Below, piece after piece: positions 17,494 to 45,743 of a DNA stretch of 64,000 nt (position 1 is the first letter of the stretch; each line of letters begins with the position of its first letter). The DNA comes from Alphaproteobacteria bacterium. GTDB lineage: Bacteria > Pseudomonadota > Alphaproteobacteria > JAAXGF01. A program made the translations under genes and the position numbers. Where the stretch lies: positions 320,001-384,000 of the forward strand of contig CAUVXB020000001.1 in the NCBI GenBank assembly GCA_963555825.3, written 5' to 3'. The notes below the pieces were generated by a model, which was not told the DNA's origin, did no database searches, and saw only the letters and a list, made by a program, of their open reading frames with translations.

Positions 17494-17522
17494 TTGACAC
17501 GCCCTGGGGCGCTCTTTAGATA
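17494..17522 (+). promoter_or_regulatory. Sigma70-type promoter, likely the original tRNA-Ser promoter
   Basis: TTGACA-17 nt-TAGATA, ending about 35 nt upstream of the stranded tRNA 5' fragment. Confidence 0.65.
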
Positions 17523-17555
17523 ACGCGGAGCGCGCCGCGTCCGCGGCGTTCGCGC

Positions 17556-17571
17556 TGGTGGGGTGGCCGAG
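17556..17571 (+). repeat. att direct repeat = 5' end of tRNA-Ser (left end of island 1)
   Basis: TGGTGGGGTGGCCGAG identical to 45650-45665. Confidence 0.85.
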
Positions 17572-17618
17572 GTCATCGAGGCAGCCTTGCGAACGGGTGC
17601 CGAACGGTAACCGCGCCC

Positions 17619-17858
17619 ATTGGCACCGGTAATCATTTCATCGAGGTTTGCATAGACGAAAGCGACCGCGATTGGGCGATGCCGCACACGGGATCACGTG
17701 GCTGCGGCAATCGCATCGGAACCTACTTCACCCAGCGGGCCAAGAGCGAAATGGAGCACTGGTTCATCAAATTGCCCGACAAGGACTTGGCCTACTTGGT
17801 CGAAGGCTCCGAACAGTTCGGTGACTACGTTCAGGCGGTCGGCTGGGCGCAACGATAG
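17619..17858 (+). pseudogene. rtcB: RtcB RNA ligase internal fragment
   Basis: Manual translation IGTGNHFIEVCIDESDRDWAMPHTGSRGCGNRIGTYF...LPDKDLAYLVEGSEQFGDYVQAVGWAQR*; RtcB GNHFIE and HSGSRG motifs; not in the ORF track. Confidence 0.85.
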
Positions 17859-17997
17859 GCGGGCAACGCCGCGGGGTCTGCTTCCCGCCCGTTAGCAGAC
17901 CTTAGAGACATTGAATCGCGGGACAGGGTGTTCGACGCCGGCTTACCGTTCGAAATCGGACACCGCGCGGCGCTTCCGCCAACGTCTGCCGTTGACC

Positions 17998-19681
17998 CAG
18001 CCTGTGTAAAAACGTCGATGGTGTTATGATTCTCTCGTGCTTTGGCGGGAGGGTCTGATGAAGCGTTTTGTCGAGGGTGTCGATCGCAGCCAGGGCACGT
18101 TGTTTCCGGAGCGCCTGGAAGACTGGATCGGCGACGACAACCCGGTTCGGGCGATCGACGTCTTCGTCGATGAGCTCGATCTTGGCGGCCTCGGGTTCGA
18201 CCGGGTCGAGCCGCTGGCGACCGGCAGGCCGGCCTATCATCCTTGCGATTTGTTGAAGCTCTACATCTACGGCTATCTCAACCGGGTTCAGTCGAGCCGT
18301 CGGCTCGAGAGGGAGGCCGGGCGCAATGTGGAAGTGATGTGGCTGGTCGGCCGGCTGGCGCCGGATCACAAGACGATCGCCGACTTCCGCAAGGACAACG
18401 GCCGTGCGATCCGCAAGGTCTGCGCCCGGTTCGTCGCGCTGTGCCGGCAACTCGGGCTGTTCGCCGAGGCGAGCGTGGCGATCGATGGCTCGAAGTTCAA
18501 GGCGGTCAACAGCCGGGACAGGAACTTCACGCGGGCCAAGATGGCGCGGCGGGTGGCGCAGATCGAGGAGAGCGTTGCGCGCTATCTGGACCAGTTGGAC
18601 AGCGCCGACCGGCAAGAGCCGTCGCTGGCGCGCACGACCAAGACGACTCGTCTGGCCGACAAGATCGCGATCCTCAAGGAGGAGATGCGGCGCCTGAAGG
18701 CGCTTGAAGTCGAGCGGCGTGCGAGCCCGGACCAGCAGATCTCTCTGAGCGATCCCGATGCCCGCTCGATGGCGACGAGCGGCCGGGGTTCCGGCGTGGT
18801 CGGCTACAACGTTCAGGCCGCCGTCGACACCAAGCACCACCTGATCGTCGCCCACGAGGTGACCAATCAGGGCACCGACCGCGTCCAGCTCTCAGCCATG
18901 GCGAAGCGGACCAAGGCGGCTCTGGAGACCGACGAGTTGGATGTCGTTGCCGATCGCGGCTACTACAACGGCAAGGAGATTCTGGCCTGCGATGAGGCCG
19001 GCATCACCGTCACATTGCCTAAGCCGCTGACCTCTGGAGCCAAGGCCAAGGGCCGCTTCGGCAAACAGGACTTCGTCTATCTGGCCGCCGACGATGTCTA
19101 TCGCTGCCCGGCCGGCGAGCGTTTGGTCTACCGCTTCACCAGCCAGGAGAGGGGGCTGAGCATGCGGCGCTACTGGACCAACGCCTGTCAGGGATGCGCC
19201 ATCAAGCATCGCTGCACCACGGCCAAGCAGCGCCGCATCACCCGCTGGCAGCACGAGCATGTTCTCGAGGCCGTCGAGAGGCGGCTCGACGAGCACCCGG
19301 AGGCGATGCGTCGGCGGCGCGAGACGGCCGAGCATCCCTTCGGCACCATCAAGTCCTGGATGGGCGCGACGCATTTCCAGACGAAGACGCTGAAACGGGT
19401 GAGGACCGAGATGGCCCTGCACGTGCTGGCCTACAATCTCAAGCGCGTCATGAACATCACGGGCATCGACCCGCTGATCGCGGCGATGAGGACCGCATAG
19501 GCCTCTCTGCGCCGCAAATTGCGCCCATATCCGGCCAAATCGCAGCTCACACCGGCGCCAGCCGGCCGACAGGTCCGCACGAGTGGCGAAAATCCTTAAT
19601 CCCGGAATACCCGCCGCGACGGATCATCGAAGCCAAAGACGCGCCGTACAGATCACGCAGCAAACGTTCTTACACAGTCTG
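17998..19681 (+). mobile_element. IS1182-family element (transposase 18058-19500)
   Basis: TIR CAGCCTGTGTAAAAACG / CGTTCTTACACAGTCTG; 4-bp TSD GACC; GRPAYHP, SSRRLERE, PDHKTIADFR, ADRGY, AEHPFGTIK. Confidence 0.92.
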
Positions 19682-19808
19682 GACCCGAAGCAGACATAGC
19701 GGGGAGCCGGATCAGCCCTTCCCAGAAACCGTGCTAGGACTAACGTAGGAACTGGTACAAATAATGGGGTAGGGCCACCCCATTGATTAGATTTACGCGA
19801 CTTTTAAG

Positions 19809-21449
19809 CCGACATTCCCCAGATGATATCCAAATTCGCGGAAATCGTACCACGGCCCCAACTCCAAGGGAACTCTGTTCCCATTGCAGCCATCCGATGA
19901 CATGATTTTGGTAATCGGCCAGCGCGTGGAAGGCCATTTGGTCGTTTCTCTTGCCATCCAGACACACCTCTCGTGTCGCAATCTCCTTGCCGTCGATTCC
20001 CTCGGCCTACGCCGGAGCGGGTCTTCGTCGTAGATCATCAATCAGGCTCAAGATTTTCTGGAACAAGCTTCTGGGACTGCAACCTCGGCCAATTGAAATG
20101 TGACGTACCGGCCATGGCTGACAACTTTCGCACCGATCTTGACCAGCTTCTCCCTCAGCGTCGTCAGCGACCATTGCTCCACGGCATCGGGCAACGCCAG
20201 GGTACGCATGAAGTTGCCGAGGTTATAGGCGAGTGCATGCAGCTGGAGCCGGACGGCATTGTTGCGTAACGAACGGCATGACAGCCGCGTCCACTTGATG
20301 GCGTTCTTGCCTTCCTTGATCCATTGCTCGGCAGTGCCGCGCTGATTGTAGAACGCAACAACCCGCTCGGCAGGACGGCTCAGGTTGGTGACGATGAAGC
20401 CGACGCGGGGATACAGTTCCCCTGAGTGCCACTCCACCTTGGCGACGACCCGGCGGGGCTTCGTCCAGCTACCGGCCCGATAGCTGAAGTTCGCGTAATA
20501 CCGACGAACTTCCTTCGGCGGCCGACCGACGGGGCGCTTGAGCAGGTGCGCGATGCTGTCGTGCAGCACCTTGTTGGCCGGAAGCCGGATGGCGTACTTG
20601 AAGCCTTCCGCTTCCAGAAACTCATAAACCTCGGGCGAGGCGAAGGCGGCGTCACCACGGAAATAACGCCGGAGTGTCTTGTTCCGGTATCGAGCGACCA
20701 CCGGGTCCAACACATCGCGCCATTCATGGGCGCTGTGCACGTTGCCCGGACGCAGGGCGCAACGCTCCAGATCGCCGAACTGGTTGAACACGAACAGCGG
20801 GTGATAGCACGTGCAGCCGAAGTGACCGTTGTAGGCCGTGCCCTCCTGGTCACCGTAGGTCGGGCTGACGGAGCTGTCCATGTCGAGCACGATAATCTTC
20901 GGCGGCTTGCGCTCGTTAACCTGGTCGATCCAGATGCCCAAAAGGTCAGCGAGCGCGGCGAGGTTGTCATTGGTGGCGAGTAACTCCGTCTCGAACCGGC
21001 CCATCTGGCTGGTCGATGCGCCGCCGCGCTCGACAGCCCTGCCGCCGACGATCCACCGCATCGCAGGATCGCGCCCCAGCCGGTCGGCGTCGTTCACGTC
21101 CTCGTACCCGGCGAGACGACCATAGACGGATTGGCGAAGGAGACCGATGATGCCGTGCCAACCGTTCTTGCCGGTCCGGCTGTCAGCAATAACGTCACCG
21201 GCCAGCGTGGTCAGGCCGAGGGCTTCGTCCAGTTCACGATAGGCGAGCAGACCAGCGTCTGACGTGATCCGCGAACCGTGGAACTCGAACTTCAGTCTTC
21301 GGTCGAAAAACGCCCGCAGAAGCCCCCGATCCGACTCACCCTCCAGGTTCCGCATTCGACCCACCCTCCGTCTGATCTAATCCACTGATTCTTATACAGG
21401 AATCAGACGGAAACCGCATCAGATGGATCGGTCACTTGGGGAATGCGGG
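19809..21449 (-). mobile_element. IS1380-family element A (transposase about 20007-21355, frameshift near the C-terminus)
   Basis: TIR CCGACATTCCCCAG / CTTGGGGAATGCGGG; TSD TTAAG; ITSDAGLL, LDMDSS, RGDAAF, YNQRGTAEQWIKE. Confidence 0.9.
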
Positions 21450-21471
21450 TTAAGACTAAGTGGGCGATCTC

Positions 21472-23871: not shown

Positions 23872-24157
23872 TTGACGACGCCAGATTGCCCTACTCCACG
23901 AATACGCGGGTTGGGCAAGGAGGTAATCCGGCTCCTCAACCTCGCTCCTCTAAGCCTGCTGGCGGCTATGAGGAGGCATCCATCCGAATGGCATTTGTCA
24001 GCTTACCGCTCGAAAGCGGACGCCCAGCGTGTCAGCCGCCGAGGTCTGCTCCTGACCCAGGCTGTGTAAAAACCGCCCCCGAGCGCTATTGGCACGATTT
24101 TCTCTGACTTCTCGAATTTCTAAACTCAACAAAATCAACATCTTATCAGACCACCTA

Positions 24158-24195
24158 TAGAAGAATTGACCGGGAATAGAAGAATTGACTGGGAA
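24158..24195 (+). repeat. 19-bp tandem repeat x2 inside the MITE
   Basis: TAGAAGAATTGACCGGGAA / TAGAAGAATTGACTGGGAA. Confidence 0.85.
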
Positions 24196-24324
24196 CTCTC
24201 CTGTTAGTGGTATTTGCCGGCGTTTTTACACATGGCGTAACTCGGGGATCGGGCACTGCTCTCCTTAATGTAGCAACGACCGGCATGGGCCGGGCGAGCA
24301 CACTGAAAGAGCAGGAGAGCAGCT

Positions 24325-25356: not shown

Positions 25357-25369
25357 GGAAACAACGTCC

Positions 25370-25560: not shown

Positions 25561-25592
25561 GAGAGCTTGACAACCAACCCCCGAGTTAGAGA

Positions 25593-26687: not shown

Positions 26688-26900
26688 CGGGCCCGGTTCG
26701 CCGCCGGTGTCGGGCTTTTGCCGTAGGGCCGGGAGTCACCTCCTGCCTGTCCCTCCAGTTCATCTCATTCGGGCCACCAACGGATTCTTCGCCGCCGCCG
26801 GCGACGCGCTTCTCATCGAAACGCAGGTGTAGCGTGACAAGGCGATGGAGGGGTGAAGTGAGCGCGTTCCGAATGCCGGTTGCCGGCCGTAGCCATATCA

Positions 26901-28075
26901 TACCAGTGAGCGCCTGAATTGACTCTCGGGATATTCATTGATGGCGGATGATGGCGGATTGTGATTCTATGGTCTCCCACCAGATGTGGGGGATGTCATG
27001 GGATCAGCACTCAAGATACGGGATGATTTGACGCCTTTGGAGCTTCGGCGCTGGGCTCGCGTGGAATCGTACGGTCGAGCGGCGGCGCGGGCCTATGGGA
27101 TCGCGAATGCTTTGGAGGAGATGCCCCGGGCTGATGCCGCGCGGCTTGCGGGGATGGATCGCCAAACGCTTCGCGACGCGGTTGTTCGTTACAATGCAAA
27201 GGGATTGGAGGGGCTTCACGACCGTCCAAAGGGCTACTCGCCGCGGCGGCTGACGGCAGACGAGGAAGCGGCGCTGGCGGCGGTCATCATCGCCGGGCCG
27301 GAGCCTGAGCGCGACGGGGTTTGCGCCTGGACCCGGGCCGATCTGTGCCGCTGGCTGGAGGAGCGCTTCGCCAAGACCTACCACCCCTCGAGCATGACCC
27401 GGGTTCTACGGCGGATGGGATTTTCCCGCCAGAAGGCGCGCCCGAGCCACCCGCGAAGGGACGCCGAAGCGCAGGAGCGCTTCAAAAAAGGGGGCTTCGC
27501 GACATCCTGAAGGCGACCGCCGCGGCGCATCCCGACAAGCGCCTACAGCTGTGGTTTCAGGATGAAGCGCGCGTCGGCAACAAGGGCCGGGTGTGTCACC
27601 GGTGGTGGCGCAGGGGCGAGCGTGCCCCCGGGACGCGTCAAATCGGCTACCAGTGGGCCTACATCTTCTCCGCCGTGCGCCCGGACACCGGCGACGACGT
27701 CACCCTGGTGATGCCGAGCGTCAACGCCAAGGTCATGGACCTGTTTCTCGCACACTTCGCCGATACCCTGGACCAGGATGCGCACGCCGTCATGATGTGC
27801 GACGGCGCCGGTTGGCACGACGAGCGCGCCCTCACCGTCCCCGACAACGTCACCTTGGCGCTGTTGCCGCCTTACAGTCCCGAACTCAACCCCGTCGAGC
27901 GGGTTTGGCTCTACCTACGCGAACGCTTCCTATCGCTCCGCGTCCTCGACGACACCGAGGCCATCATCGACGCCTGTTGCCAAGCATGGATCGACCTCAT
28001 CGCAGAACCGGATCGTATGCGAACCCTCTGCGCCTATCCATGGATCATGAAGGTGATTTCATAGGCTCACTGGTA
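26901..28075 (+). mobile_element. IS630-family element, copy 2
   Basis: Identical ORF translations to copy 1 in inverted orientation; flanks TCA/TCA; AAAAAAG at 27484-27490. Confidence 0.93.
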
Positions 28076-29461
28076 TCAGTCCAACGGCGGCCGCTGCTTG
28101 CCGTAGCCAGTCGCCTGTTCGTAGGCGTGAGCAATCTGAAGAACCAAAAGGTCGGCGCCGGGTGGGCCCAAGATCTGCAGGCCGCGCGGAATACCGGCAT
28201 CAGAAAGTCCACAGGGAACCGTGGCGGCGGGCAGTCCGAGCAGCGGCGCGGCGAAGAGCAAGGACCAGTCGTGCCTGTCTCCCGCTTCCTCGTCGTTGAA
28301 ACCGAAAGGGTCGGAAAGGTCATTCGGCCAGACCAGGACATCGTGCCGGGCGAAGGCCCGCGATACCTCGTTCCACATCTTGTGCCGACGGGCCTCGGCC
28401 GCCATGAAGTCCACGCCGGTCAGGCTGCGGAACCAGTGATACTTCTGCTCGAGCCGGGAATCGAGGCCGCGCCCGACCGCCGGCTCGACCTCGGCGGCGA
28501 CGCGTTGATAGGCCAGAACGCTGTAGTGATCGTAGAGGTCATCTACATGGTCGATCGGGCATTCGGCGACGACGCAACCGAGACCCTCGAACACGCTGCG
28601 CTGAGCGTCGAAGTTACGGCCGATGTCGGGATCGATCTGGAGGCAGTCATGGTCGCGGCTCCAGCCGATACCGAGCCCCGTCATGTCGCGGGCCAGCTCG
28701 GGAAGGCCAGCGGGAAATGGCGCTGACACCACGACCGGGCAGCGGAGATCGGGCCCTGTCAACGCCGACAAGAACAGAGCAGCATCCGCCACGCTGCGGG
28801 CCAGCGGCCCCGGCGCGTTCATGTTGTGCCATATGGCGGGATTGGGGACGTCGGGAATCATCCAAGACGTCGGGCGGTGGCCGACGATGTTGCACCAGGC
28901 AGCGGGGTTGCGCACGGACCCGCCGATGTCGGAGCCGTCAGCCAGCGAACACAGGCCGGCGGCGAGCGCGGCGCCGCTTCCGCCGCTGCTGGCGCCGGGA
29001 CAGAGGGTGGTGTCGTATGGATTGCGAGTCGGCCCGAACACCGGATTGTCGCAGGTGTTGAGCGCCATGGTGTATTCGGGCGTATTGAGCTTACCCAGGA
29101 TAATGGCGCCTGCGGCCTTCTCCCGCTCGACGACCGAGTGATCGAACGCCGGGACATGATCCTTGAAGGCAAGCGACGCGAACGTGGTGCGAATTCCCTT
29201 GGTCGGGAAGCAGTCCTTCACGCCGATGGGAAGGCCGTGCAGGACGCCGATAGTGTCGCTCCGGGCGCGCGCCTCGTCGGCCAATTTGGCCTCTCCGCGT
29301 GCTTCGTCCAGGCGCAGCGTGACGAAAGCGTTCAGCAGCGGATAAAAGCGTTCGATACGGCCTATGTAGGAATCGACGAGCTCGACCACGCTCAGTTCGC
29401 GCCGATCGAGCAAAGATTTTTGTTCGACGGCGGAGAGGAAACAGAGATCGATTGCGTTCAT
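28076..29461 (-). CDS. Amidase (amidase signature family)
   Basis: GLPIGVKD, PGASSGGSGAA, GSDIGGSVRNPA. Confidence 0.9.
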   Translation of the reverse strand: MNAIDLCFLSAVEQKSLLDRRELSVVELVDSYIGRIERFYPLLNAFVTLRLDEARGEAKLADEARARSDTIGVLHGLPIGVKDCFPTKGIRTTFASLAFKDHVPAFDHSVVEREKAAGAIILGKLNTPEYTMALNTCDNPVFGPTRNPYDTTLCPGASSGGSGAALAAGLCSLADGSDIGGSVRNPAAWCNIVGHRPTSWMIPDVPNPAIWHNMNAPGPLARSVADAALFLSALTGPDLRCPVVVSAPFPAGLPELARDMTGLGIGWSRDHDCLQIDPDIGRNFDAQRSVFEGLGCVVAECPIDHVDDLYDHYSVLAYQRVAAEVEPAVGRGLDSRLEQKYHWFRSLTGVDFMAAEARRHKMWNEVSRAFARHDVLVWPNDLSDPFGFNDEEAGDRHDWSLLFAAPLLGLPAATVPCGLSDAGIPRGLQILGPPGADLLVLQIAHAYEQATGYGKQRPPLD

Positions 29462-29593
29462 GACACCGCTACGGTTTATCCGCCATGGACCGTGATCCTC
29501 CCGTTAGGTATCGGCGAAACACGCCGGTCCATGTAATACCGTACCCGAACCCGAAGCTCTGTATTGTAGCTCCGTGACACTGAAACCGCTCTA

Positions 29594-30763
29594 GTGTCCC
29601 GATTCCGAAGTTCGCATGATTTTCGCCTGCTGTTCAGCGATTTCGATTGTTCGGAGGCAGAAGCGCTGGATGGCGCCGAGGATGTCATCGGCGGATTTGG
29701 TCCATTTGAAGGGTTTGGGGTTCTGGTTTGTCGTGTCGATGTAGTCGAGGATGGTGCGCTCCAAGGCCCTTGGTGGAGCGATGGACGCCGCGCCTGATCT
29801 GCTTGTCGTCAGCAGCCCGAACCAGCGCTCGACCTGGTTCAGCCAGGAGGCGCTGGTGGGTGTGAAATGGGCCTGCCAGCGCGGCCGTTTGGCGAACCAG
29901 TCGCGGATCGCCTTGGTCTTGTGGGTCCCGTAGTTGTCCATGACGATGTGGATGTCGAGATCAGCAGGGACGTTCGCCTCGACGAGGTCGAGGAATTTGC
30001 GGAACTCTCGGGCCCGATGGCGCGGGAAACATTTGCCGATGATCTCTCCCGTGGCGATGTCGAGGGCCGCGAAGAGAGAGGTCGTGCCGTGGCGCTTGTA
30101 GTCGTGGCTGCGCCGCTCCGCCTGCCCGGGGCGCATCGGCAAGAGGGGCTGGGAACGGTCCAGGGCCTGGATCTGGCTCTTTTCGTCGACACAGAGAACC
30201 AGGGCACGATCCGGCGGCGCCAAATACAGACCGACGATGTCGCGGACCTTCTCCACGAAGAAGGGATCGCTCGACAGCTTGAAGGTCTCCGAGCGATGCG
30301 GCTGCAAGCCGAGGCCCGCCAGATGCGATGAATGGTCGAGGGCGCGTGGCCGCTCGCCCGCGCCATCGAGCGAAGGCTCCAATGGGTCGCGTCCGGCGGC
30401 GTCTCTTCCAGCGTCAGCCGGACCGCTTCCGCGATGGCGTCATCGCCGATTTCCGCGGCGCGCCGGGGCGGGGTTCGTCGTACAGACCGTCGAGGCCCTC
30501 CGCCGCATAGCGGCGACGCCACTTGCCCACGGTGTCCGCGCTCGCCTCGAGACGAACCGGCGATCTCCTTGTTCTCCAACCCTTCCGCCGCCGCCAAGAC
30601 GATCCGAGCCCGCCGCGCAAGCCCCTGCGACGTCTTGCGACTACGAGACAGCGCCTCCAATTCCCGTCATCGCTCAAAGAGATCGTCACCGATGACTCTC
30701 GCCATCAATCGCGCCTCCTAAAAACAAATAGAGACATAATCATATCAATTGATCACAGGACAC
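29594..30763 (-). mobile_element. Degenerate IS630-family element (multiple frameshifts)
   Basis: Ends (TA)GTGTCC...GGACAC(TA) in CTAG context; [31 protein letters not shown] split over several frames. Confidence 0.88.
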
Positions 30764-30944
30764 TAGACTCCGACCTTCACCGCCACCTTAGTCCTGTATC
30801 CTAGTCCCGCAACTGAGATTTCACATTCGACGCGTCGCGGACAACGGATCCGGCGTGCATCAGTGTCCCTGAGCCCTCGTGCGGGTCCCGATGTCGCACG
30901 GAGCCAACCGGTTGGTCAGGGAATCTACTTTATGGCTACAGAAC

Positions 30945-31652: not shown

Positions 31653-31656
31653 CGCC

Positions 31657-36126: not shown

Positions 36127-39100
36127 ATGGCGCGTGATCCGCGATACGACGTTCTGTTCGAGCCGATCAAGATTGGCCCCGTCACGGCGCCCAACCGATT
36201 CTACCAAGTACCCCACTGCAACGGCATGGGGCGGGTTCATCCGACCAGCATGGCCCATATGCGCGGCATGAAGGCCGAGGGCGGCTGGGGCATTGTCGCC
36301 ACCGAGCAGTGCGACATTCACCACACCGCCGACATCGCTCCTTCTACGGAGACCCGCATGTGGGACGACGGCGACAAGAACTATCTGGCGCGCATGGCCG
36401 AGGCGGTCAGGGCCCATGGCAGCCTGGCCGCTATCGAGCTGGTGCACAACTCGATCTCCGCGTCCAACCTCTACAGCCGCGAGGTGCCGATCGGACCCAT
36501 GCACCGCCCGGTCAAGTGGACCAACCACCCGGTCCAGGCGCGGGCCATGGATTTGTCCGACATCCGCGACTACCGCCGCTGGCACCGCAATACGGCAATC
36601 CGCGCCCGCGACGCCGGGTTCAATATCGTCGTGGTCTATTCGGGCCACGACGGCACCCTGCCGACTTTCTTCCTGTCGAAGCGCCACAACCAGCGCACGG
36701 ACGAGTATGGCGGCAGCCTGGAGAACCGCCTGCGCCTGTTCCGCGAACTCATCGAGGAGACCAAGGACGCGGTCGGCGACACCATGGCGGTGGTGGTGCG
36801 TTTCGCGGTCGACGAGATGATGGGCGCCGACGGCATGGAGTGGGCCGGTGAGGGCCGCGACGCGGTCGAGATGCTGGCCGAGCTGCCCGACATGTGGGAC
36901 GTCAACGTCTCCGACTGGGCCAACGATTCCACGACCTCGCGGTTCGCCGAGGAAGGCTATCAGGAGGCGTTCATCGGCTTCGTCAAGCAGGTCACCACCA
37001 AGCCGGTGGCCGCCGTCGGCCGCTATACCTCGCCCGACGCCATGGTCTCGGCGATCCGCCGCGGCGTGGTCGACGTGATCGGCGCGGCGCGGCCCTCCAT
37101 CGCCGACCCGTTCCTGCCCAAGAAGATCGAGGAAGGCCGCATCGAGGATATCCGCGAGTGCATTGGCTGCAATATCTGCGTCGCCTGGAACAACATGGCC
37201 GCGCCGCTCCGCTGCACCCAGAACCCGACCCAGGGCGAGGAATGGCGCAAGGGCTGGCACCCGGAGAAGATTCCGGCCAAGGGTGAGAACGGCAGAGCAA
37301 TAATCCCCCACTGAAGCGGCCGGTCGATCCGGCTGCGGCGGACCAAAATGGGACCGCGTATAGCCTTCTGTCAGGGTTGCTCTGACTGGAAGGCGGGGGG
37401 GATGTATCGGGTGGAGTTGTACGCACGGGTTCGGCGGGCGTGTCATGTCGAGGGGATGAGCACCCGCGAGGCCTCGCGGGTGTTTGGTGTAGACCGCAAG
37501 ACGGTCCGTAAGATGCTGTCGTTCTCGGTGCCGCCAGGGTATCGCCGAAGCGCGCCGCCGAGGCGGCCAAAGCTGGGTCCGTTCACGGGAATCATCGATC
37601 GGATCTTGGAAGACGATCGGACCAGCCACCGCAAGCAACGGCACACTGCGAAGCGCATCTTCGACCGCCTCCGGGACGAGTACGGTTTCACGGGCGGCTA
37701 CACCATCGTGAAGGACTACGTTCGTGAGCAGGGGCTTCGGTCGCGTGAGGTGTTCGTGCCACTCTCCCATTCCCCCGGTCACGCCCAGGCGGACTTCGGC
37801 GAAGCGATGGCGGTGATCGGCGGCGCGTTACGGAAGATCCACTTCCTTGCCTTCGACCTTCCCCACAGTGATGGTTGCTTTGTTGCGGCCTATCCGGCGG
37901 AGACGACCGAAGCATTCTGCGATGGCCACAACGCGGCGTTTGCCTTCTTCGGCGGCGTCCCCCGATCCATCCTGTACGACAACACCAAGCTGGCGGTTGC
38001 CCGGATCCTGGGCGATGGGAAGCGGCAGCGAACGCGCGTCTTCACGGAGCTTCAGTCCCACTATCTGTTCGAGGACAGGTTCGGCCGGCCGGGCAAGGGC
38101 AACGACAAGGGCAAGGTCGAGGGACTGGTCGGCTTCATCCGGCGGAACTTCCTGGTCCCCGTCCCGCGTGCCGAGAGCTTCGCGGCCCTCAACGATGCTC
38201 TCGCCGAACAGTGCCGCCGGCGCCAGGCGGCGCGGCTGCGGGGCCACAAGGAGACCATCGGCGAGCGTCTCGAGCGGGATCGTCAAGTTCTCTTGCCATT
38301 GCCGCCTGCTCCCTATGATGCCTGCGATAAGCGCCCTGGACGGGCGAGTTCGCTGTCGCTGGTGCGTTACCGCAGCAACGACTATTCCGTGCCCGTGGCC
38401 TACGGCCACCGTGAGGTGCTCATCCGGGGCTACGTCGATGAGGTGGTGATCAGCTGCGGGGCCGAGGTGATCGCCCGGCACCGCCGGTCCTACGACAGCG
38501 AGGACCTGATCTTCGACCCGCTGCATTACCTGCCCTTGATCGAGCAGAAGATCGGCGCCCTCGACCAGGCCGCGCCATTGGCGGGCTGGGACCTGCCCGA
38601 GGCCTTCATCACTCTGCGGCGGCTCCTCGAAGCTCGTATGGGCAAGGCAGGCAAGCGCGAGTACGTCCAGGTGCTCCGTCTACTGGAGACCTTCCGGCTC
38701 GAGGAGGTCGAGGGTGCGGTCGGCGACGCCCTGCGGCTCGGCGCAATCGGCTTTGATGCGGTGAAGCACCTGGTACTGTGCCGCATCGAGCGGCGGCCGC
38801 CCAGGCTCAACCTCGACGTCTATCCGTATCTGCCGCGCGCCCGGGTCGCGATGACGTCCGCCAAGTCGTACATGAGCCTGCTGTCGGGGCTCGGCGCATG
38901 ACCGACACACCGCAAGTGCTGCTCGCCCACCACCTCAAGACGCTGAAGCTGCCGACCTTCCTGCGCGAGTACGACAAGATCGCCCGGCAGTGCGCCTCGG
39001 AAGGCGTCGATCACGTCCGCTACCTGTTGAGACTCGCCGAGCTCGAGCTGATCGACCGCGAGCGCCGCATGGTCGAGCGGCGCATCAAGGCGGCGCGCTT

Positions 39101-40772
39101 CCCCGTGGTCAAGAGCCTCGACAGCTTCGACTTCAAGGTCATCCCCTCGCTCAACAAGGCGCTGGTCCTGGAGCTGGCCCGCTGCGAGTACATCGAGCGC
39201 CGCGAGAACCTCATCGCGCTCGGCAACAGTGGGACCGGCAAGACCCACATCGCCCTCGGTCTCGGCCTGGCGGCCTGCCAGAAGGGCCTCTCGGTCGGCT
39301 TCATCACCGCCGCCGCGCTGGTCCACGAACTCATCGAGGCCCGCGATGACAAGCAGCTGCTGAGGTTCCAGAAGAAGCTCGCCACCTACAAGCTTCTGAT
39401 CGTCGACGAACTCGGCTTCGTGCCGCTGTCGAAGACCGGCGCCGAGCTGTTGTTCGAGGTGTTCAGCCAACGCTACGAGCGGGGCTCGACCCTGGTCACC
39501 ACCAATCTGCCCTTCGACGAATGGACCGAGGTGTTCGGCTCCGAGCGCCTCACCGGCGCGCTCCTCGATCGCCTCACCCACCACGTCAACATCCTCGAGA
39601 TGAACGGTGACAGCTACAGGCTCAACCAGAGCCGCAGGCGTCAAACCCCGACTGCTAACTGAACCGACCACCCAGCCCACGCTTGACCCCGTGGGCCCAC
39701 AGGTCCCTCCCGCGCGCGCCGCCGCGTCAGCCTGTTGAGGGCACGCCGCGTCGCGCGCGGGGCCCTCCCGTGGACTACGGGGACAAGCCCGCAGCCGCCA
39801 AGCGGTCCCTTCTTACACCGCCGAGGTGGTCCCTTTTTGCTCCGCCATTGACACAAGGGCTCGGACGCCAGCGTGCTGGTGGTCGGGGCCGGCCCGGCGG
39901 GCCTCGAGGCGGCGCGGGCCCTGGGCCAGCGGGGCTACACCGTTACCCTGGCCGAGGCCGGCGACGAACTCGGCGGCCGCGTTACGCTTGAGAGCGCCCT
40001 GCCGGGGCTTTCCGCCTGGGTCCGGGTGCGCGACTACAGGGTCGGCCAAATCCGCGAGATGGCCAATGTGGAAGTCTTCCTGGCCAGTGACATGACCGCC
40101 GAGCATGTCCGCGAACTCGGCCCCGATCATGTGGCGATCGCGACCGGCTCACACTGGCGCCCCGACGGCATGGGCCGGGCCAACTTGGCACCGGTGCCCG
40201 GCGCCGATAGCGCCAGCGTGCTGACGCCGGACGACATCATGGCCGGCAAGCGGCCGGTGGGGCCGGTGATCATCTACGACGACGACCACTACTACATGGG
40301 CAACGTCATTGCCGAACTCCTGCGCGGCGAAGGCCACGACGTGACCCTGGCGACCCCGGCGCTGTGCATCGCCCAGTGGACCCAGTACACCCTGGAACAG
40401 GAAAAGATCGAGCGCCGCATGGTTGACCTCGGCATCGAAATCCTCGCCCGCCACCGCCTGTCGGCCGTCGGCGACGGCACGGTGGAAATGGTCGAGAGCC
40501 TGACCGGCGCCACGGTGACGCGGCCGGGCAGCGTGGTCTCGGTGACGGCGCGGCTGCCGCGCGACGCGCTCTACTATGCCCTGAGCGGCGACGCCCAGGC
40601 CCTGGCCGATGCCGGCATCCAGTCGGTCAAGCGCGTTGGCGATTGCTACGGCCCGGCGACCATCGCCGCCGCGGTCTACGAAGGCCACCGCTACGCCCGC
40701 GAACTCGATACCGAGGTCGACCCGGACTCGGTGCCGTTCCACCGCGAGCGCTACGAACTTGACTCGGTCTGA
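36127..40772 (+). pseudogene. Trimethylamine/histamine dehydrogenase-like flavoprotein split by IS21
   Basis: MARDPRYDVLFEP...NRFYQVPHC (cysteinyl-FMN site), CIGCNIC...CTQNP; rejoins as IPAKG|SDASVLVVGAGPAG, about 689 aa. Confidence 0.88.
37284..39853 (+). mobile_element. IS21-family element, copy 1 (istA about 37402-38901, istB 38898-39662)
   Basis: TG...CA ends; 6-bp TSD CAAGGG; IstA AQADFG/YDN/KGKVEG; IstB GNSGTGKT and LLIVDELG. Confidence 0.95.
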
Positions 40773-40775
40773 AAC

Positions 40776-43700
40776 GAGCTATTGTCAAAAGTTGTGTATG
40801 GGCTGATCATGCGGCGGCGCGATCCTGGCGTTCTCCATCTACGAATTTGACGCCGCGAATGATCTCGGCGAGATGGTTCGATCCATCGAGTTTTCTCCAT
40901 TTTCTCTGAGCGCACTGGCATAGTTTGAAGACCATGGCCATCGCCGTCTTGCGCGACAGGCAGCCCTTGGTCCGGTAGGTGCGCAGACGAACCGTGGCGA
41001 ACGTGCTCTCGATGGGGTTGGTCGTGCGTACATGCTTCCAGTGCTCGGCGGGGAAGTCGTAGAACGTCAGCAGGACGTCGCGGTCCTTGGCCAGGCAGGC
41101 CGCGGCCTTGTCGTACTTCGGCCCGTAGGCTTCCAGGAAGAAGTCGAAGGCGCTCTCGGCATCCTTCCTGGTTTCGGCCATCCAGATGTCTTGCAGGCGC
41201 CCCTTGGCTTTCTTTTGCAGACCCTTGGGCAGCTTGTTCAAGACGTTGCCCGTCTTGTGAACCCAGCAGCGTTGCTCGCGGGCGCCTGGGTAGACTTGGC
41301 GGAGCGCCTTCCAGAAGCCGAGCGCGCCGTCGCCGAGCGCCAGTTGCGGACCCATTTCAAGGCCGCGCCGCTTGAGATCGAGCAGAACTTCGAGCCAGGA
41401 CTGCTCACTTTCGCGATAGCCGTCGGCGATGGCGATCAGTTCCTTCTGTCCCTTGTCCGTGGCCCCGACGATCACCAGGATGCACTGCTTCTCTTCCTCC
41501 ATGCGGGCGCTGAAATAGATGCCGTCCACCCAGAAATAGACGTAGCGCTTGGCCGTGAGGTCGCGCCGTTGCCAGCGCTCCGCCTCAACCCCCCAGACCT
41601 CTTTCAGCCGGGTGATCGTGGAGGCCGAAAGCCCCGGCGCGGAGCTCCCCAGGAGCGCCGCCAAGGCTTCCCCGAAGTCGCCGGTGGAAATGCCCTTCAG
41701 ATACAGCCATGGCAAAAGGTCTTCCAGGCTCTTGGCGCGGCGCAGATAGCGCGGCAGGATCGCCGACGTGAAGCGGATGGCGCCGTCCCCCCGGTCCCGC
41801 ACACGGGGTTGGCGCACGCTCACCGGGCCGATCCCGGTCTGGATGAAGCGTTCCGGCAGATATCCATTGCGGACAACCCGGCGGCGGCCGGCGGCGTCAA
41901 CAAGCGCCGCATGGCTACCCAAAAACACGGAGACCTCGGCCTCAACGGCTTGGGCCAACAACTCGCGAGCTCCAGCTTGTAGGACTTCCGTCAACGGATC
42001 TTTCTGAAAATCAGATGGGTTTTGAAAAGCAACAACGGTATTCTCTTTCATGGCGTATCCTTCCTTGGCTTAGCTCAAGTGGTGACATCAACAATCACCA
42101 GGATACGCCGCCTTCATTTCAACGCCGTACACAAGATTCGACGGGGCGATAAAAAGTTGTTGGCCGATGGCGTGCTTGTACAGGTCTTTGCGGTTCGGTG
42201 AAGAATATTTGCCTGTCTCCGCGTTGCTGGTGGATAAAACCTGATATTACCTACCCTTGGCTTCTCCTTGGCTTCGTTTTTTATGGTGCGATTGCCGCGC
42301 AGCGTCGGATATTGAGGCCGAGGGCACGCAGATTGACCACGTAGCGCATGGCCGGCATGCCGCGAATGCGTAGGTGAGCCAGGTTCATCTGGTACTTTAA
42401 TCGCGACATGGTCGCTTCTATGCCGGCCCGCCATCTGTAGACGTTGCGGAAGGCATCGCTTTGTTCATAAAGCCGGCGCTTTTGGTTGGCAGCCCTGGCC
42501 GGGGTATATTGAAAGCGGGAAAATTGGCCGTCACGCTTGGCCGCCTGCACGGGACATCGCAGTATATCGGGACATTTTTGGCAGATGGAGAGGTCGAAAC
42601 GGGCCTGCAGCTTGGCTTTGGCGAGCGAGGCTGAAACCGGTTCGACGTTATTGGGACAGCGCAAGACCAAGCCTTCTTCGTTGAGAGTGAAATCCTCCAA
42701 CGTCAACCGTCCCGAGACGGCGCCTTTCGGCGGTCGTGCGGGCGCCACGAGATTGATGTTCTGTTCGCGCGTCAGAGCCATGTTGTCACTGGAACCGTAA
42801 TGTGAATCACCCAGCATCACCGCCGGCGTCAGCGCGCGCTCGCTCAGATCATCCAGCGCATCGGCTAAGCGATGGCCGTCATGCACCGTCATCTTGTGGA
42901 CCTCCACGTGGGTGATGAGGTCCGGTGTCGCGGCAACCGCCTCGTTACTGACATCTTCACAATAGGTTTCGACGATCTGCGCCATGTATCCTTGACCCTT
43001 GTGCGCGTTGTAGCTCGCGTCCGGGTCGGCCGGATTGCCGACGGTATCGCACGGCACATCCTTTGGATCTCGAATCGCGGCGCGCGTTGCGTCACGATCG
43101 CCATACTCATCATCAACGATCTCGAACTGATCGCGCAGAACCCTCTCCAGGATCGCAAAACTGGAAAGCTTTGCCGCCGCCGTGTCACGGAATTGCAGCA
43201 CCAGGGCTAGGAGATACTGACCCGCTTCGCCGAGGCGCCGTTTTGAAACACTCGGCGCCGTATTCGCGAACGCGCCATTACCCTCGCGATCGACATAGCG
43301 GCGGATCACCTCCTTGCTGATCTGCTCGTGCAGACCGGGATGATATCGCTCAAGCTCACGGGCAAACTTCGAGATGCTCTCAACAACGATACCAAGTCGT
43401 GTCAGCGCCCGCATTGCCGAACGAAGGGCCGTCGAATCCATGCGTTGGTGGCTGGTATCGACAGAGAACCCCTGCACCAGCCGATCCGTCAAACACCGGA
43501 ACAGCAATTCATCGAGACCTTGTTCGATAAACAGACGGCGATAGTTGCGCAGGGTTTTCTCACAGAAATAGCTGTCCGCTTCGCTGCGCACGTCCAAGGC
43601 ATAGTGCCACGCCATATTGAAGGCCAGGGCCTCGACGGTCTCTGCATCGCTCAGATCGTGCAGCTGCTGCAAAAGCAAGACCCCGATGACAACGTGTAGA

Positions 43701-43958
43701 TCCTTCGATGGTCGGCCCATGCGTTCATCAAGGTGACGGCAAAGATCGTCAACCGGAAGTTCGACAAGCAGATGGTTCCGAAAAACCCCGGCCCAGGATT
43801 GCTCCATCAGGCGCCGACGTTTGTCCCCGAAATCGGACCAGCGATCAAACAATTCCCCAGTCCGTCGGTCGCGTAAAGTAAACATGCACAATTATAATCC
43901 AGCCGACTCTCATGAGGAATCGACTTTTTACCGCCCCGTCAAGATTCGGTTATAGCTC
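40776..43958 (-). mobile_element. IS256-family element (transposase 40807-42051) with another IS nested in its left TIR
   Basis: Ends GAGCTAT / ATAGCTC; 9-bp TSD GTCTGAAAC; WVDG, GDGALGF, QRCWVHK, RTTNPIES. Confidence 0.9.
42140..43940 (-). mobile_element. DDE IS of IS1182-like/ISNCY type (transposase 42281-43891)
   Basis: TIR GACGGGGCGATAAAAAGT / ACTTTTTACCGCCCCGTC; duplicated AAGATTC (CAAGATTCG if ends are trimmed by 1 nt); QRMDST, DPDASY, GDSHYG, RAGIEATMS. Confidence 0.85.
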
Positions 43959-44122
43959 GTCTGAAACCAGCGAGCCCATAAACGAACTCGAACCGTCGTC
44001 ATGCCTCGAGTCTGTCGGAGGACGAGGACACCCGCGCGACGTCATATTTCACACTGCAATCCTGAAAGACGCAAAGGCCCTGCTCGACGGCCCGACTTGA
44101 GGGATGGTGTGACAATTCCGGC

Positions 44123-45542
44123 TGAGTCGGACCCGATTTCCTTGGACACAGAATTGGCTTAATCGAAGTGTCCAAGGAGGACCGGAACATGACCGACAAT
44201 TTTGAGAACAAAGTTGCTGTTGATGGGCCTGTGGTAAACGAGGGCGAGCTTGGCTCGTCCACGTTTTCCCCGGGCCAGGTTTCGCCGGCAGGCCCTCTGG
44301 GACTTGGCCAGCGGTGGACGGTGACGCGCAAGCGTGAGGTTGCCCTGCGGCTTTTGCGTGGCGAGCCGGTGGAACTTTTGTCGCGGCAGTTGGGCGTGGA
44401 GATTTTCCGGCTCGAGCAGTGGCGTGAGAAGGCGATCGCCGGGATCGATGCCTCGCTCAAGGAACGCAAGGGCGATCCGGTGAAGGCGGAACTGGACATC
44501 GCCATGAAGCGGATCGGGGAGTTGATCATGCAGGTGGAACTGCTGGAGGCCAAGACGGAGACGTCCGGCCCTTTGGGGCGGCGGAGGTCGCGGCGATGAG
44601 TGCCGCCACCTCTCCCGGCACGGGTTTGGCCTACGGCCTCCAGCGGGTCTGTGCGGCCTGGGGTTTTGCCCGTTCCTCGTTCTACGCCATGAAATCCCGG
44701 CAGCAGGCCACCGCTGAGCGCCCACCAGCAAAGCGCCGGGGACCGAAGCCCTCGATCTCGGACGAGGCTCTGCTGGTGGCCATCGAGGCCGACCTGGAGG
44801 CATCCCCCTGGGAGGGCGAGGGACACCGCAAGGTCTGGGCTCGGCTTCGGGTCTGTCGTGGCATCCGTGTTTCCCGCAAGCGGGGGCTCCGGGTGATGCG
44901 CGAGAACAACCTGCTCTCGCCCCATCGCTGCCGCCGCCGTGGCGGAAATCCCCATGTCGGTGAGATCATCACCCATGCCCCCAACCTCATGTGGGGCACG
45001 GACGGCGTTCGGGTGTTCACGGTGGACGACGGCTGGGGCTGGATATTCACCGCCATCGAGCATTGGAACGCCGAGTGCGTCGGCTGGCATGTGTGCAAGC
45101 GAGGCGACCGCTTCGCCGCCCTTCAGCCGATCTCCATGGGGCTTGCGAGGCTGTATGCCTCGACCTCCGCCGGTGCGGCGCGGGGGCTGGCCTTGCGGAT
45201 GGATCACGGCTCCCAGTATCTGTCGGACCACTTCACCAACCAGATCAAGTTCTGGGGCATCCAGCCGTCCTACGCCTTCGTCGAACAGCCCCAGACCAAC
45301 GGCGTCGCCGAGAGGTTCAATCGCACGCTCAAGGAACAGATCATCCATGGCCGCATCTACCGCAACATCGCGGAGCTGCGGAACGCCGTCCGCGGGTTCG
45401 TCGAACAGTACAATGCCCAGTGGATCGTGGAGAAGAACGGCTACCTGAGCCCCGCTCAAGCTCGTCAGGCGTGGCACACCGCGATGTCACTCAGGCCCGC
45501 CGCATGAGACAAACTTGTGTCCAAGGAACCGGGTGCGATACA
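44123..45542 (+). mobile_element. IS3-family element (orfA about 44189-44599, orfB 44596-45507), no TSD
   Basis: TG...CA ends with TTCCTTGGACAC / GTGTCCAAGGAA; WGTDG, MDHGSQY, NGVAERFNRTLKE. Confidence 0.85.
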
Positions 45543-45577
45543 CTCAGAGGTACGCTAGAAGAACAGAATTAAGATTG

Positions 45578-45642
45578 TCGGGTGCCAATCGGGTGCTAAT
45601 TCGGTATTTTGTTGCGGATGGCTGTAGCGTAAGTCATTGAAT
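45578..45642 (+). promoter_or_regulatory. Putative integrase arm-type repeats and IHF-like site of the island right end
   Basis: TCGGGTGCCAA-TCGGGTGCTAA tandem (also ACGGGTGCCGA at 17593-17603); TAAGTCATTGAAT at 45630-45642, one mismatch to IHF consensus. Confidence 0.55.
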
Positions 45643-45650
45643 TTTAACAT

Positions 45651-45743
45651 GGTGGGGTGGCCGAGTGGCTGAAGGCGCCGGTTTGCTAAACCGGTATACG
45701 GTGTTGAACCGTATCGAGGGTTCGAATCCCTCTCCCACCGCCA
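45651..45743 (+). tRNA. tRNA-Ser(GCT)
   Basis: Acceptor GGTGGGG/TCCCACC, anticodon arm CCGGT-TTGCTAA-ACCGG, long variable arm, GTTCGAATC T-loop, discriminator G plus encoded CCA. Confidence 0.97.

Follow-up and report, generated by a model that had tools for sequence, protein, structure and literature searches.

A decayed tyrosine-integrase island that very probably replaced the 5' half of the only tRNA-Ser(GCT) gene of an alphaproteobacterium

Integration that displaces a 5' tRNA fragment is rare and has already been catalogued. The Islander survey lists 159 islands with a displaced 5' tRNA fragment among 3919 islands (PMC4383910), and Krupovic et al. describe 5'-distal recombination as "considerably less frequent" (PMC6563490). 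The locus described here is a decayed, immobile case of this kind, and the 5'-side replacement that a sequence-only reading of the same DNA had set apart from most tRNA-targeting integrases is, beside that catalogue, rare but not new (PMC4383910). Like the Islander 5'-fragment islands as that paper presents them, it has an intact tRNA gene, a 5' fragment upstream in the same orientation, foreign DNA in between, and an island-brought promoter; unlike them, it has no integrase, the fragment is only 15 nt long, and 67% of the body is insertion sequence (IS) DNA (PMC4383910). Since no integrase is left, Islander's own integrase filter would reject the island.

A further point of comparison is the anticodon-loop class of tRNA-targeting tyrosine integrases, which is reportedly part of the sublocation scheme of Williams (2002). 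The integrase family traced here resembles this class in that the repeats of the intact relatives stop in nt 38-43, on the 3' side of the anticodon stem-loop, that the repeat of a relic at tRNA-Ser(CGA) of the present genome ends in the anticodon loop, that the symmetric stem flanks the likely overlap, and that arm-type repeats lie on both arms. It differs in carrying the 5' half of the tRNA gene, not the 3' half, and in having an integrase gene that reads towards the tRNA 5' end. ICEMcSym1192 was considered as a relative and rejected; it uses the 3' end of tRNA-Ser and is hence mechanistically unrelated.

The window, by which we mean the whole 64,000-nt stretch of DNA analyzed, contains the following features from the upstream neighbor to the tRNA gene.

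17075-17470, plus strand: 3' part of a gene with a YbaK/aminoacyl-tRNA-editing domain (Pfam tRNA_edit, E 3.9e-23)
17494-17522, plus strand: native tRNA-Ser(GCT) promoter, orphaned (TTGACA at 17494-17499, 17 nt, TAGATA at 17517-17522)
17556-17571, plus strand: left repeat, a truncated attL stub (T plus tRNA nt 1-15)
17572-45650, no strand: island body, 28,079 nt, mostly IS copies and cargo
45651-45743, plus strand: tRNA-Ser(GCT), intact, sole AGY decoder (ARAGORN)

The only tRNA gene in the window is tRNA-Ser(GCT), which is one of four tRNA-Ser genes among the 60 tRNAs of the genome and the single gene with the GCT anticodon. Its nt 1-15, GGTGGGGTGGCCGAG, have a second copy at 17557-17571, and with the preceding T the direct repeat is 16 nt long (17556-17571 and 45650-45665). 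In the 6,042,393-nt genome GGTGGGGTGGCCGAG occurs exactly twice and the reversed control pattern not at all; the 3' part of the tRNA gene has no further copy anywhere in the window. The intact tDNA and its cognate end fragment lie on one replicon in the same orientation, with the 5' fragment (17557-17571) upstream of the tDNA (45651), which is the configuration that Islander looks for. The TTGACA-17-TAGATA promoter is present exactly as the sequence-only reading gave it, followed by only 15 nt of the tRNA, with the full gene 28 kb downstream.

Gene order in relatives points the same way. In four of the eight relatives' loci an intact tRNA-Ser(GCT) comes directly after a ybaK-like gene, so the order that the sequence-only reading had expected is found, and on this comparison the YbaK-like gene is the ancestral upstream neighbor. 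The repeats and this ancestral gene order support the proposal that an element entered at the 5' side of tRNA-Ser(GCT) and replaced its 5' part. The companion proposal of argD as the former downstream neighbor finds no support, as a tRNA lies within 1.5 kb of an argD-like gene in none of 11 relatives' loci.

The body carries IS1182-like, IS4-like, IS110, IS630, IS1595, IS21, IS256, and IS3 elements, with an amidase, a glutathione S-transferase (GST), a CoA-transferase, and a split aldo/keto reductase as cargo between them (Pfam) and an OYE-type reductase interrupted by IS21. Another genomic copy at 85% identity or more exists for 18,796 nt of the body (67%), and G+C content drops over it from about 0.69 to 0.55-0.66. 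Neither junction coincides with an IS end; unique DNA flanks the body for 361 nt at the left and 94 nt at the right. The tyrosine integrase profile PF00589, with 45 matches in the genome, has none in the window, so the integrase that Islander asks for is lacking; the only integrase remnant that tblastn with 13 family integrases recovered in the island is a 13-codon tail. None of the backbone genes of a related 13.1-kb island was found here, the only match being an amidase-family one at 29.5%. With no integrase gene left, the integrating agent has to be inferred from the arm and the remnants.

A set of 80 loci encoding homologues of the integrase remnant was classed by the tRNA gene within 700 nt after the match. 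A same-strand tRNA-Ser gene (GCT, TGA, or CGA) follows at 22 of them; the others comprise 4 with another same-strand tRNA, 21 with an opposite-strand tRNA, 26 with no tRNA, and 7 that are cut. In a quick tree, the same-strand cases cluster in a mostly alphaproteobacterial half that also holds the integrase remnant of the present genome. This clustering of labels was matched by none of 500 shuffles; the split between the two orientations has an SH-aLRT of 70, which is weak. Distant homologues in Actinomycetota, Chloroflexota, and Bacillota have the usual convergent layout, and the best integrase match among known phages is at 32% identity. Two relatives (G041 and G042) have both island ends on one contig, 34.1 and 13.1 kb apart, with tRNA nt 1-43 as the direct repeat and tandem CCGGTGCCAAT again in the P' arm; the 13.1-kb island contains the integrase, an HTH_17 (excisionase-type) gene, a ParA-like gene, and cargo. 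Because these two intact relatives repeat nt 1-43, the family swaps the 5' half of the tRNA, with a crossover that, judged from where the repeats end, probably lies in the anticodon loop and not in the D-arm.

The right end of the island preserves the arm of such an element.

44104-45543, plus strand: IS3-family copy, sitting where the integrase gene 3' end is expected
45557-45650, plus strand: surviving P arm of the island, unique in the genome, aligning with the relatives' integrase-to-tRNA spacers
45581-45589, plus strand: arm-type repeat GGTGCCAAT, tandem, right arm
45592-45600, plus strand: arm-type repeat GGTGCTAAT, tandem, right arm
45627-45640, plus strand: conserved TAAG-type box GCGTAAGTCATTGA, right arm

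At the 22 loci above, an arm separates the tyrosine integrase gene from the same-strand tRNA-Ser; the 94 nt immediately upstream of the tRNA in the window match this arm, and 45557-45650 was aligned with the integrase-to-tRNA spacers of 19 relatives and of a tRNA-Ser(TGA) relic in the same genome (locus 2). As in the family, tandem GGTGCCAA-type repeats and a TAAG-type box occur within 110 nt before tRNA nt 1, the box being present in 17 of 21 alignment rows as read by eye. What the family has and this locus lacks is an integrase ORF ending shortly upstream, its place being taken by the IS3 copy, whose right end at 45542/45543 is common to about 85 copies, and a repeat reaching from nt 1 to about nt 38-43, as only nt 1-15 are repeated here. 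Contigs of two public runs (X8 and X17) have other DNA ahead of 45543; in our own translation, their last 30 nt before this point read ...CDNVGKVDAAR, with the stop completed by window letters, and the 30 nt from X17 are not in the present genome.

Two smaller observations of the sequence-only reading stand in part. Of the CGGGTGC copies reported inside both ends, those at the right (45579 and 45590) form part of the tandem GGTGCCAAT/GGTGCTAAT repeats, which are a conserved feature of the arm in this integrase family; the one at the left (17594) falls within the integrase coding remnant and is probably coincidental. Over the window as a whole CGGGTGC shows no enrichment (19 copies versus 20.9 expected). 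As for an IHF-like site before the right repeat, the exact consensus WATCAANNNNTTR is absent there, and we read there only a minus-strand sequence, at about 45630-45642, that departs from it at one position.

The left end holds debris of a different kind.

17569-17610, plus strand: tyrosine integrase remnant, the last 13 codons (EVIEAALRTGAER) and TAA
17619-17909, plus strand: internal fragment of rtcB (RNA ligase), residues about 171-268

The integrase remnant is joined to tRNA nt 15 through the common letters CCGAG; 17567-17717 has 89% DNA identity to the 3' end of an integrase pseudogene at G000:C1:766563-766713, and the relatives' integrases likewise terminate in IEAAMRTTGER or IENVLRTPRER before the stop. 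The neighboring fragment matches an RtcB-like ORF of a relative (G007) at 62% identity (tblastn, E 6e-31); RtcB is a putative name, given on the strength of its motifs. A supposed inverted arm site GGTGCCAAT at 17619-17627 was discarded, as these letters encode the GTGNHFIE motif of the rtcB fragment. Since the remnant was already fused to the rtcB fragment, in a junction common to this end and locus 2, this DNA is debris and not a P' arm. We count against our main reading that no P' arm follows the left repeat, that this repeat measures 15-16 nt and not about 43, and that the integrase remnant sits at the end opposite to the one that the canonical layout of the family would give it; its position calls for a further rearrangement or for a tandem array that once existed. 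Because nt 15 is abutted by the integrase 3' remnant and the rtcB fragment, the 15-nt limit of the repeat would reflect a later rearrangement.

The left junction could also be read as the original crossover, in the D-arm, with attP inside the 3' end of the element's own integrase gene, as in Mx8 and SSV, and the integrase tail left at attL. The remnant does abut the repeat exactly, in frame through GAG, and Mx8 and SSV, cited in PMC4383910, are precedents for an integrase gene running across attP; the likeness to these systems is that, at the left end, an integrase tail directly adjoins the tRNA repeat. In the relatives, however, the integrase ORFs end before the tRNA. When the frame is extended beyond the match, it terminates 68-129 nt short of the tRNA in 16 of the 22 same-strand tRNA-Ser loci and 375-805 nt short in the other 6, and the repeat comprises nt 1-43. 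Moreover, the attR of the window is the canonical noncoding arm and not integrase body, the remnant's frame meets a stop codon five codons ahead of the right repeat, and the tail is fused debris whose junction recurs in locus 2. On the relatives' ORF ends and the noncoding right arm we rejected this model as improbable, and the island is no member of the Mx8/SSV type. The D-arm crossover of the sequence-only reading is not supported, given the nt 1-43 repeats of the intact relatives and the CGA relic, whose fragment identity ends in the anticodon loop.

Slighter still is the chance that no island was involved and that an IS-mediated inversion, a transposition, or a composite transposon split the tRNA from its promoter, the 16-mer being a target duplication or a coincidence. 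The genome is crowded with IS copies, repeated DNA makes up 67% of the interval, and a tRNA-Ser 5' fragment 2.6 Mb from its own gene and on the opposite strand testifies to large rearrangements. Against this, the junctions lie away from IS ends, behind unique DNA of 361 nt (left) and 94 nt (right), the 15-mer is found at just two genomic places, and the right junction joins a conserved integrase-family arm to tRNA nt 1, as in 19 relatives.

It is thus highly probable that 17572-45650 is a decayed tyrosine-integrase island in tRNA-Ser(GCT), with the reverse of the usual polarity. In the history that we propose, the integrase gene in the circular form would have been followed by a stretch of about 80-110 nt holding a tandem pair of GGTGCCAA-type arm sites, next by a promoter-like box, and finally by a copy of the tRNA 5' half (nt 1 to about 43). 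A crossover, probably in the anticodon loop, would have left the host promoter and the old 5' half at the far end (attL) and joined the element's arm, promoter, and 5' half to the host 3' half at attR, the essential tRNA being transcribed from island DNA from then on. Insertion sequences may later have filled the island, the IS3 copy and associated loss may have removed the integrase gene beside the tRNA, and an illegitimate join via CCGAG, to an integrase 3' remnant that would by then have been fused to the rtcB fragment, may have shortened attL to tRNA nt 15. Having neither an integrase nor, at attL, an anticodon-loop core, the island has no route to site-specific excision and is fixed.

Because the island entered the front half of the gene, the tRNA depends on a promoter that the island brought. 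The results support the view that the native promoter now drives just a 15-nt stub and that the full tRNA-Ser(GCT), with a 5' half that presumably came from the island, has upstream of it island DNA that must supply its promoter; the dependence of the AGY-decoding tRNA on island DNA, a central claim of the sequence-only reading, is thereby upheld for the sole GCT tRNA in the genome. At the equivalent place before an intact tRNA-Ser(GCT), four relatives (L004, L005, L010, and L011) have TTGACA and an A/T-rich hexamer. Consensus promoter scans returned nothing at either end of the island, and no consensus sigma-70 promoter was called in the right arm; the TTGACA-17-TAGATA promoter was missed because the scanner demands T at the last -10 position. 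We take the box GCGTAAGTCATTGA (45627-45640) as the putative island-borne tRNA promoter. One contig of a public RNA run (X15) covers 45568-45744 and 45551-45631 is without cover in another public run (X16), but contigs cannot show transcription starts; with run depths at the right arm equal to those of the flanks and of a DNA run, they neither show nor exclude a start.

Similar relics occur elsewhere in the genome. At tRNA-Ser(TGA) there is a 5.7-kb island with a 5' fragment of nt 1-30 (29/30) and an integrase pseudogene, and tRNA-Ser(CGA) is accompanied by arm-like repeats, by the C-terminal remnant of an integrase (E 3e-6), and by a displaced fragment of nt 9-39 whose identity ends in the anticodon loop.

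A second element adjoins the 3' side of the tRNA.

45943-48691, minus strand: second element, tRNA 3' side (Pfam)
45943-47667, minus strand: large serine recombinase, PF00239 and PF07508, 574 aa
47664-48155, minus strand: DUF2924 gene (Pfam)
48161-48691, minus strand: DUF3489 gene (Pfam)

Like other large serine recombinases, the enzyme is longer than 500 aa and combines Resolvase and Recombinase domains, and its homologues are convergent to a tRNA in 14 of 30 loci. No repeat of the tRNA 3' end of at least 13 nt was found, no displaced tRNA 3' fragment lies near the element in the complete genome G018, and no far end of the element was found; in two relatives (G001 and G013), the DNA after the tRNA matches other parts of the present genome. 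The authors of the Islander paper state that tRNA 3'-end targeting was not known for serine integrases (PMC4383910). The small serine recombinase of phiRSM has its attP/attB at the 3' end of tRNA-Ser(UCG) (PMC3816273), and the neighboring element alone shares with it, as described there, the association of a serine recombinase with a tRNA-Ser 3' end; it differs in having a 574-aa large serine recombinase with DUF2924 and DUF3489 genes. Our literature search returned no paper joining a serine recombinase, a tRNA gene, and DUF2924, and none with DUF2924 among the matches listed. That this recombinase integrated everything from 17572 to about 57900 as one element with the tRNA as cargo is the least credible reading, for although it is the sole intact site-specific recombinase gene nearby and its homologues adjoin tRNA genes, the tRNA is the genome's only GCT gene, the arm upstream of it belongs to a tyrosine-integrase family, the window has no remnant of a tRNA 3' end farther to the right, and several loci have the homologue on the 3' side of a chromosomal tRNA without a 5' island.

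We put forward tentatively, as somewhat less than an even chance, that tRNA-Ser genes of this lineage are two-sided integration hot spots, with tyrosine integrases of reversed polarity on the 5' side and, on the 3' side, a clade of large serine recombinases with DUF2924/DUF3489 neighbors that would insert immediately behind tRNA 3' ends. As part of that suggestion, a mostly alphaproteobacterial clade might capture the 5' half and promoter of an essential tRNA, and relics of this tyrosine-integrase clade might mark three of the four tRNA-Ser genes of the genome. If so, once the promoter has been captured the cell could not survive an imprecise loss of the right arm, and island wrecks like the present one would therefore be preserved.

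The main finding will be ordinary to specialists in integrative elements, and a fresher lead may lie in the neighboring type of element, the serine-recombinase elements found at tRNA 3' ends. In annotation, this island would escape finders that require an integrase and a 3' fragment, and its relatives define an integrase clade, its arm sites, and the likely crossover region. The locus is a clear natural case of mobile DNA taking the place of the promoter and 5' half of a tRNA gene that is both essential and single-copy, and it shows what remains of such an island after its death in an IS-swamped genome.

The first 15 nt of tRNA-Ser(GCT), GGTGGGGTGGCCGAG, recur at the left end of the island that precedes the gene (17572-45650), and the repeat reaches 16 nt when the T before the 15-mer is counted. 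The 15-mer occurs at just two sites in the whole 6,042,393-nt genome, a reversed control pattern had 0 matches there, and no second copy of the 3' part of the tRNA gene was found within the window. The left repeat (the stub) is preceded by a TTGACA promoter that begins 24 nt past the stop codon of a ybaK-like gene (YbaK-type tRNA_edit domain). This site is absent from the promoter-scan output because the scan demands T at the last -10 position. The claim of the sequence-only reading that a 15- to 16-nt tRNA 5' repeat stands behind a good promoter is thereby confirmed.

Features of the island and its flanks (window coordinates; island genes from Pfam scans of selected ORFs)
17494-17499 and 17517-17522: TTGACA and TAGATA, 17 nt apart
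17557-17571: left repeat, second copy of tRNA-Ser(GCT) nt 1 to 15
17619-17909: internal rtcB fragment
28076-29461: amidase gene, flanked by two IS630-family copies
in the island: GST and family III CoA-transferase
in the island: split aldo/keto reductase
in the island: OYE-type reductase, broken by IS21
in the island: transposases of IS1182-like, IS4-like, IS110, IS630, IS1595, IS21, IS256, and IS3 types
45651-45743, plus strand: tRNA-Ser(GCT), sole tRNA of the window (ARAGORN)
45943-47667, minus strand: large serine recombinase (574 aa), convergent, gene end 200 nt past the tRNA-Ser(GCT) 3' end
after the serine recombinase gene: DUF2924 and DUF3489 genes (within 45943-48691) and ParB-methylase gene, with IS21 and IS1595 insertions

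When the ybaK flank was used as the query against 41 related genomes and the 8 fetched loci were scanned for tRNAs, an intact tRNA-Ser(GCT) lay immediately downstream of the ybaK-like gene in 4 of them (L004, L005, L010, and L011), with TTGACA and an A/T-rich hexamer at the equivalent position before the tRNA; no tRNA was found within the fetched stretch at the remaining 4. This is the ybaK-to-tRNA-Ser part of the gene order that the sequence-only reading had proposed to look for in relatives, and the comparison indicates that the stub, with the promoter before it, is where the tRNA-Ser(GCT) gene originally began.

In the window, tRNA nt 15 of the left repeat runs directly into EVIEAALRTGAER and then a stop. 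This is the C terminus of a family of tyrosine integrases, whose relatives end in ...IEAAMRTTGER or ...IENVLRTPRER. The segment 17567-17717 is 89% identical to C1:766563-766713 of the source genome, which forms the 3' end of a pseudogene for a tyrosine integrase. The pseudogene is N-terminally truncated and contains a single TGG-to-TGA change. With the catalytic part of this pseudogene as the query, 80 homologous loci were taken, one genome per species, and each was scanned for the nearest tRNA up to 700 nt past the match.

Nearest tRNA at the 80 integrase loci
tRNA-Ser (GCT, TGA, or CGA), same strand: 22
other tRNA, same strand: 4
tRNA on the opposite strand (the usual layout): 21
no tRNA within 700 nt: 26
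locus cut by contig end: 7

Among the 22 loci with tRNA-Ser on the same strand, the extended integrase frame stops 68 to 129 nt upstream of the tRNA in 16; the other 6, with stops 375 to 805 nt upstream, may hold broken genes. A quick tree was built from the source genome's integrase remnant and the matches, 79 of 80 after one row of <150 aa was left out. One of its halves has 39 rows, including 18 with the tRNA on the opposite strand and 1 with it on the same strand; the other, mostly alphaproteobacterial, has 41 rows, including 21 with a tRNA-Ser on the same strand, 3 with another tRNA on the same strand, and 3 with the tRNA on the opposite strand. The remnant falls in the latter half. The clustering of tRNA-orientation labels on this tree was equalled by 0 of 500 shuffles, and the split between the halves had an SH-aLRT of only 70. 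A representative family integrase has Phage_integrase and Phage_int_SAM_3 domains, and no phage record matched it above 32% identity.

The 110 nt upstream of the tRNA were aligned in 21 rows: 19 relatives, the window, and locus 2, another decayed island of this family in the source genome. The aligned arm consists of two tandem repeats of the type GGTGCCAA, followed by a T-rich stretch, and a box such as GTGCTAAGTGCCTGA; a TAA-containing box was read by eye in 17 of 21 rows, and in most rows about 10 to 25 nt separate the box from tRNA nt 1. The window arm has GGTGCCAAT at 45581, GGTGCTAAT at 45592, and GCGTAAGTCATTGA at 45627-45640, and the repeat pattern GGTGCYAAT has only 3 occurrences in the window. 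Two relatives carry both island ends on one contig, 34.1 kb apart in G041 and 13.1 kb apart in G042. Their direct repeat is tRNA nt 1 to 43, which takes in everything from the 5' end up to and including the anticodon stem-loop, and the arm inside attL also has tandem CCGGTGCCAAT. In two more attL-like fragments, on other contigs, identity ends at nt 38 or the 5' half has diverged. Judging by these repeat end points, the family crossover most likely takes place in the anticodon loop. The 13.1-kb island encodes an integrase, a TraY-like protein, an HTH_17 (excisionase-type) protein, a ParA-like ATPase, and a Fic/RhuM protein, along with cargo.

From the repeat of nt 1 to 43 and the arm layout, it follows that integration by this family swaps out the 5' half of tRNA-Ser together with its promoter. 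In G042 and a further relative, G043, the host DNA before attL also has GTGCTAAGTGCC at equal distance, an indication that the elements bring with them a copied, genuine tRNA-Ser promoter. In its core, the sequence-only reading of integration on the 5' side of tRNA-Ser(GCT), with the native promoter left at the stub and a new one supplied by the island, was right. Its placement of the crossover in the D-arm was probably wrong, as judged from the G041 and G042 repeats and from a tRNA-Ser(CGA) fragment of the source genome that ends in the anticodon loop.

The internal fragment that starts 8 nt past the integrase-tail stop is 62% identical to residues 171 to 268 of an RtcB-like ORF in the relative G007, and from its motifs we take it to be rtcB. 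A search with the G007 protein found no intact rtcB in the genome; its only rtcB-like sequences are this internal fragment and another at C1:766600-766713, and in both the junction with the 3' end of an integrase falls at an identical point. Since the integrase-rtcB junction also occurs at locus 2, it is older debris and not the P' arm. At the joint between the tRNA and the integrase tail, the shared letters are CCGAG only. An illegitimate join at attL would have deleted tRNA nt 16 to 43 and the true P' arm, leaving the 15- to 16-nt repeat; a former tandem array or an inversion is a possible origin of an integrase tail in such an orientation.

The genome has 60 tRNA genes, 4 of them for serine (GCT, TGA, CGA, and GGA), and a single gene with anticodon GCT. 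This sole gene must be expressed, so its promoter must sit either within the 94-nt arm or farther upstream, in IS3. A consensus promoter scan of the right arm called nothing, and the arm's box is unlike the native tRNA promoters of the genome (TTGAC, about 17 nt, CTATAG). It is reasonable to infer that an essential tRNA would fall silent if the right arm were lost and that the island's right end is in this sense locked in place.

Inside the island, G+C falls from about 0.69 to 0.55-0.66, and 18,796 of its 28,079 nt (67%) have at least one other genome copy at 85% identity or more. Unique DNA beside the repeats is limited to 17572-17932 on the left and 45557-45650 on the right. The insertion sequence load is extreme genome-wide, with about 85 copies of one IS3-family element (window 44104-45543) and about 90 of an IS21. 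Two identical IS21 copies in the window (37262-39878 and 52609-55230) break the OYE-type reductase gene and an Mrr-like gene. The amidase gene lies between oppositely oriented IS630-family copies in a composite-transposon-like arrangement (26893-30776), and a third such copy is at 11769-12512.

None of the genome's 45 Phage_integrase matches falls in the window, and a tblastn search of it with 13 full-length family integrases found nothing beyond the 13-codon tail. The right end of the IS3 copy is at 45542/45543. A 1716-nt DNA contig from the public run X8 is identical to the window over 45543-46000 and has other DNA before 45543, where a second run, X17, also differs from the window. Manual translation of the last 30 nt before 45543 in the runs, continued into the window letters, gives ...CDNVGKVDAAR and then a stop, resembling the end of an integrase; the 30-mer is not present in the source genome. 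Some public runs containing the stretch are labeled sponge metagenome. Because it has lost its integrase and attL lacks the anticodon-loop core, the island is predicted to be incapable of site-specific excision.

Further relics occur in the same genome. At locus 2 (C1:765463-771332), nt 1 to 30 of tRNA-Ser(TGA) (C1:765463-765553) are repeated 5.7 kb away (29/30), and the interior holds IS copies and the N-truncated integrase pseudogene, inverted relative to the canonical family layout. tRNA-Ser(CGA) (C2:858336) is preceded by arm-like repeats, GCGACCAATTGGTGACCAT, and by the C-terminal remains of an integrase (E 3e-6), oriented as in the canonical layout (relic span C2:857932-858424). A 5' fragment of this tRNA, nt 9 to 39 (30/31), lies at C2:3499109-3499139, with identity stopping within the anticodon loop; its position 2.6 Mb away on the opposite strand implies a large rearrangement. 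Thus, 3 of the 4 tRNA-Ser genes bear wrecks of the family.

The serine recombinase beside tRNA-Ser(GCT) has a paralogue with 52% identity at C2:858712-860409, about 290 nt past tRNA-Ser(CGA) and also convergent. Among 30 recombinase loci from 251 genomes of the class, the window's own included, 14 have a tRNA within 1.5 kb (13 of 29 when L163, from genome G057, flagged unpublished, is left out), in every case just beyond the 3' end of the recombinase gene and convergent. These tRNAs are Ser(GCT) at 4 loci, Ser(CGA) at 2, Ser(GGA) at 1, Met at 3, Gln at 3, and Arg at 1. Words like TTAAGTCATTG start directly past the tRNA CCA at several recombinase loci, and a tRNA 3'-end repeat was not found in the window or in the complete genome G018. 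The word AAGTCATTGA is found in the island's promoter-like box (45631-45640), in an A/T-rich intergenic stretch at 61091-61103, and, in the form TTAAGTCATTG, past the tRNAs at L162, L163, and L173. About 35 nt past the tRNA, GGTAGGGATTCGAACTCTCGG (45778-45800) is an inverted near-copy of the tRNA T-arm and may be part of a candidate attachment site of the serine recombinase; inverted T-arm-like words also occur in L162 and L173. The recombinase of phage phiRSM is described as using the 3' end of tRNA-Ser(UCG) (PMC3816273); it is a small serine recombinase, whereas the one here is large, and both are associated with a tRNA-Ser 3' end.

Of the 3919 islands in Table 1 of Islander, the tDNA fragment is a 3' one in 3760 and a 5' one in 159, and the same source admits integrases that extend across attP (Mx8 and SSV) (PMC4383910). 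The kind is therefore already known, and the novelty proposed in the sequence-only reading does not hold: the island is a new, dead member of it. The integrase clade and its arm sites may or may not have been described already. The family-level picture and the serine recombinase neighbor are the parts that deserve renewed attention.
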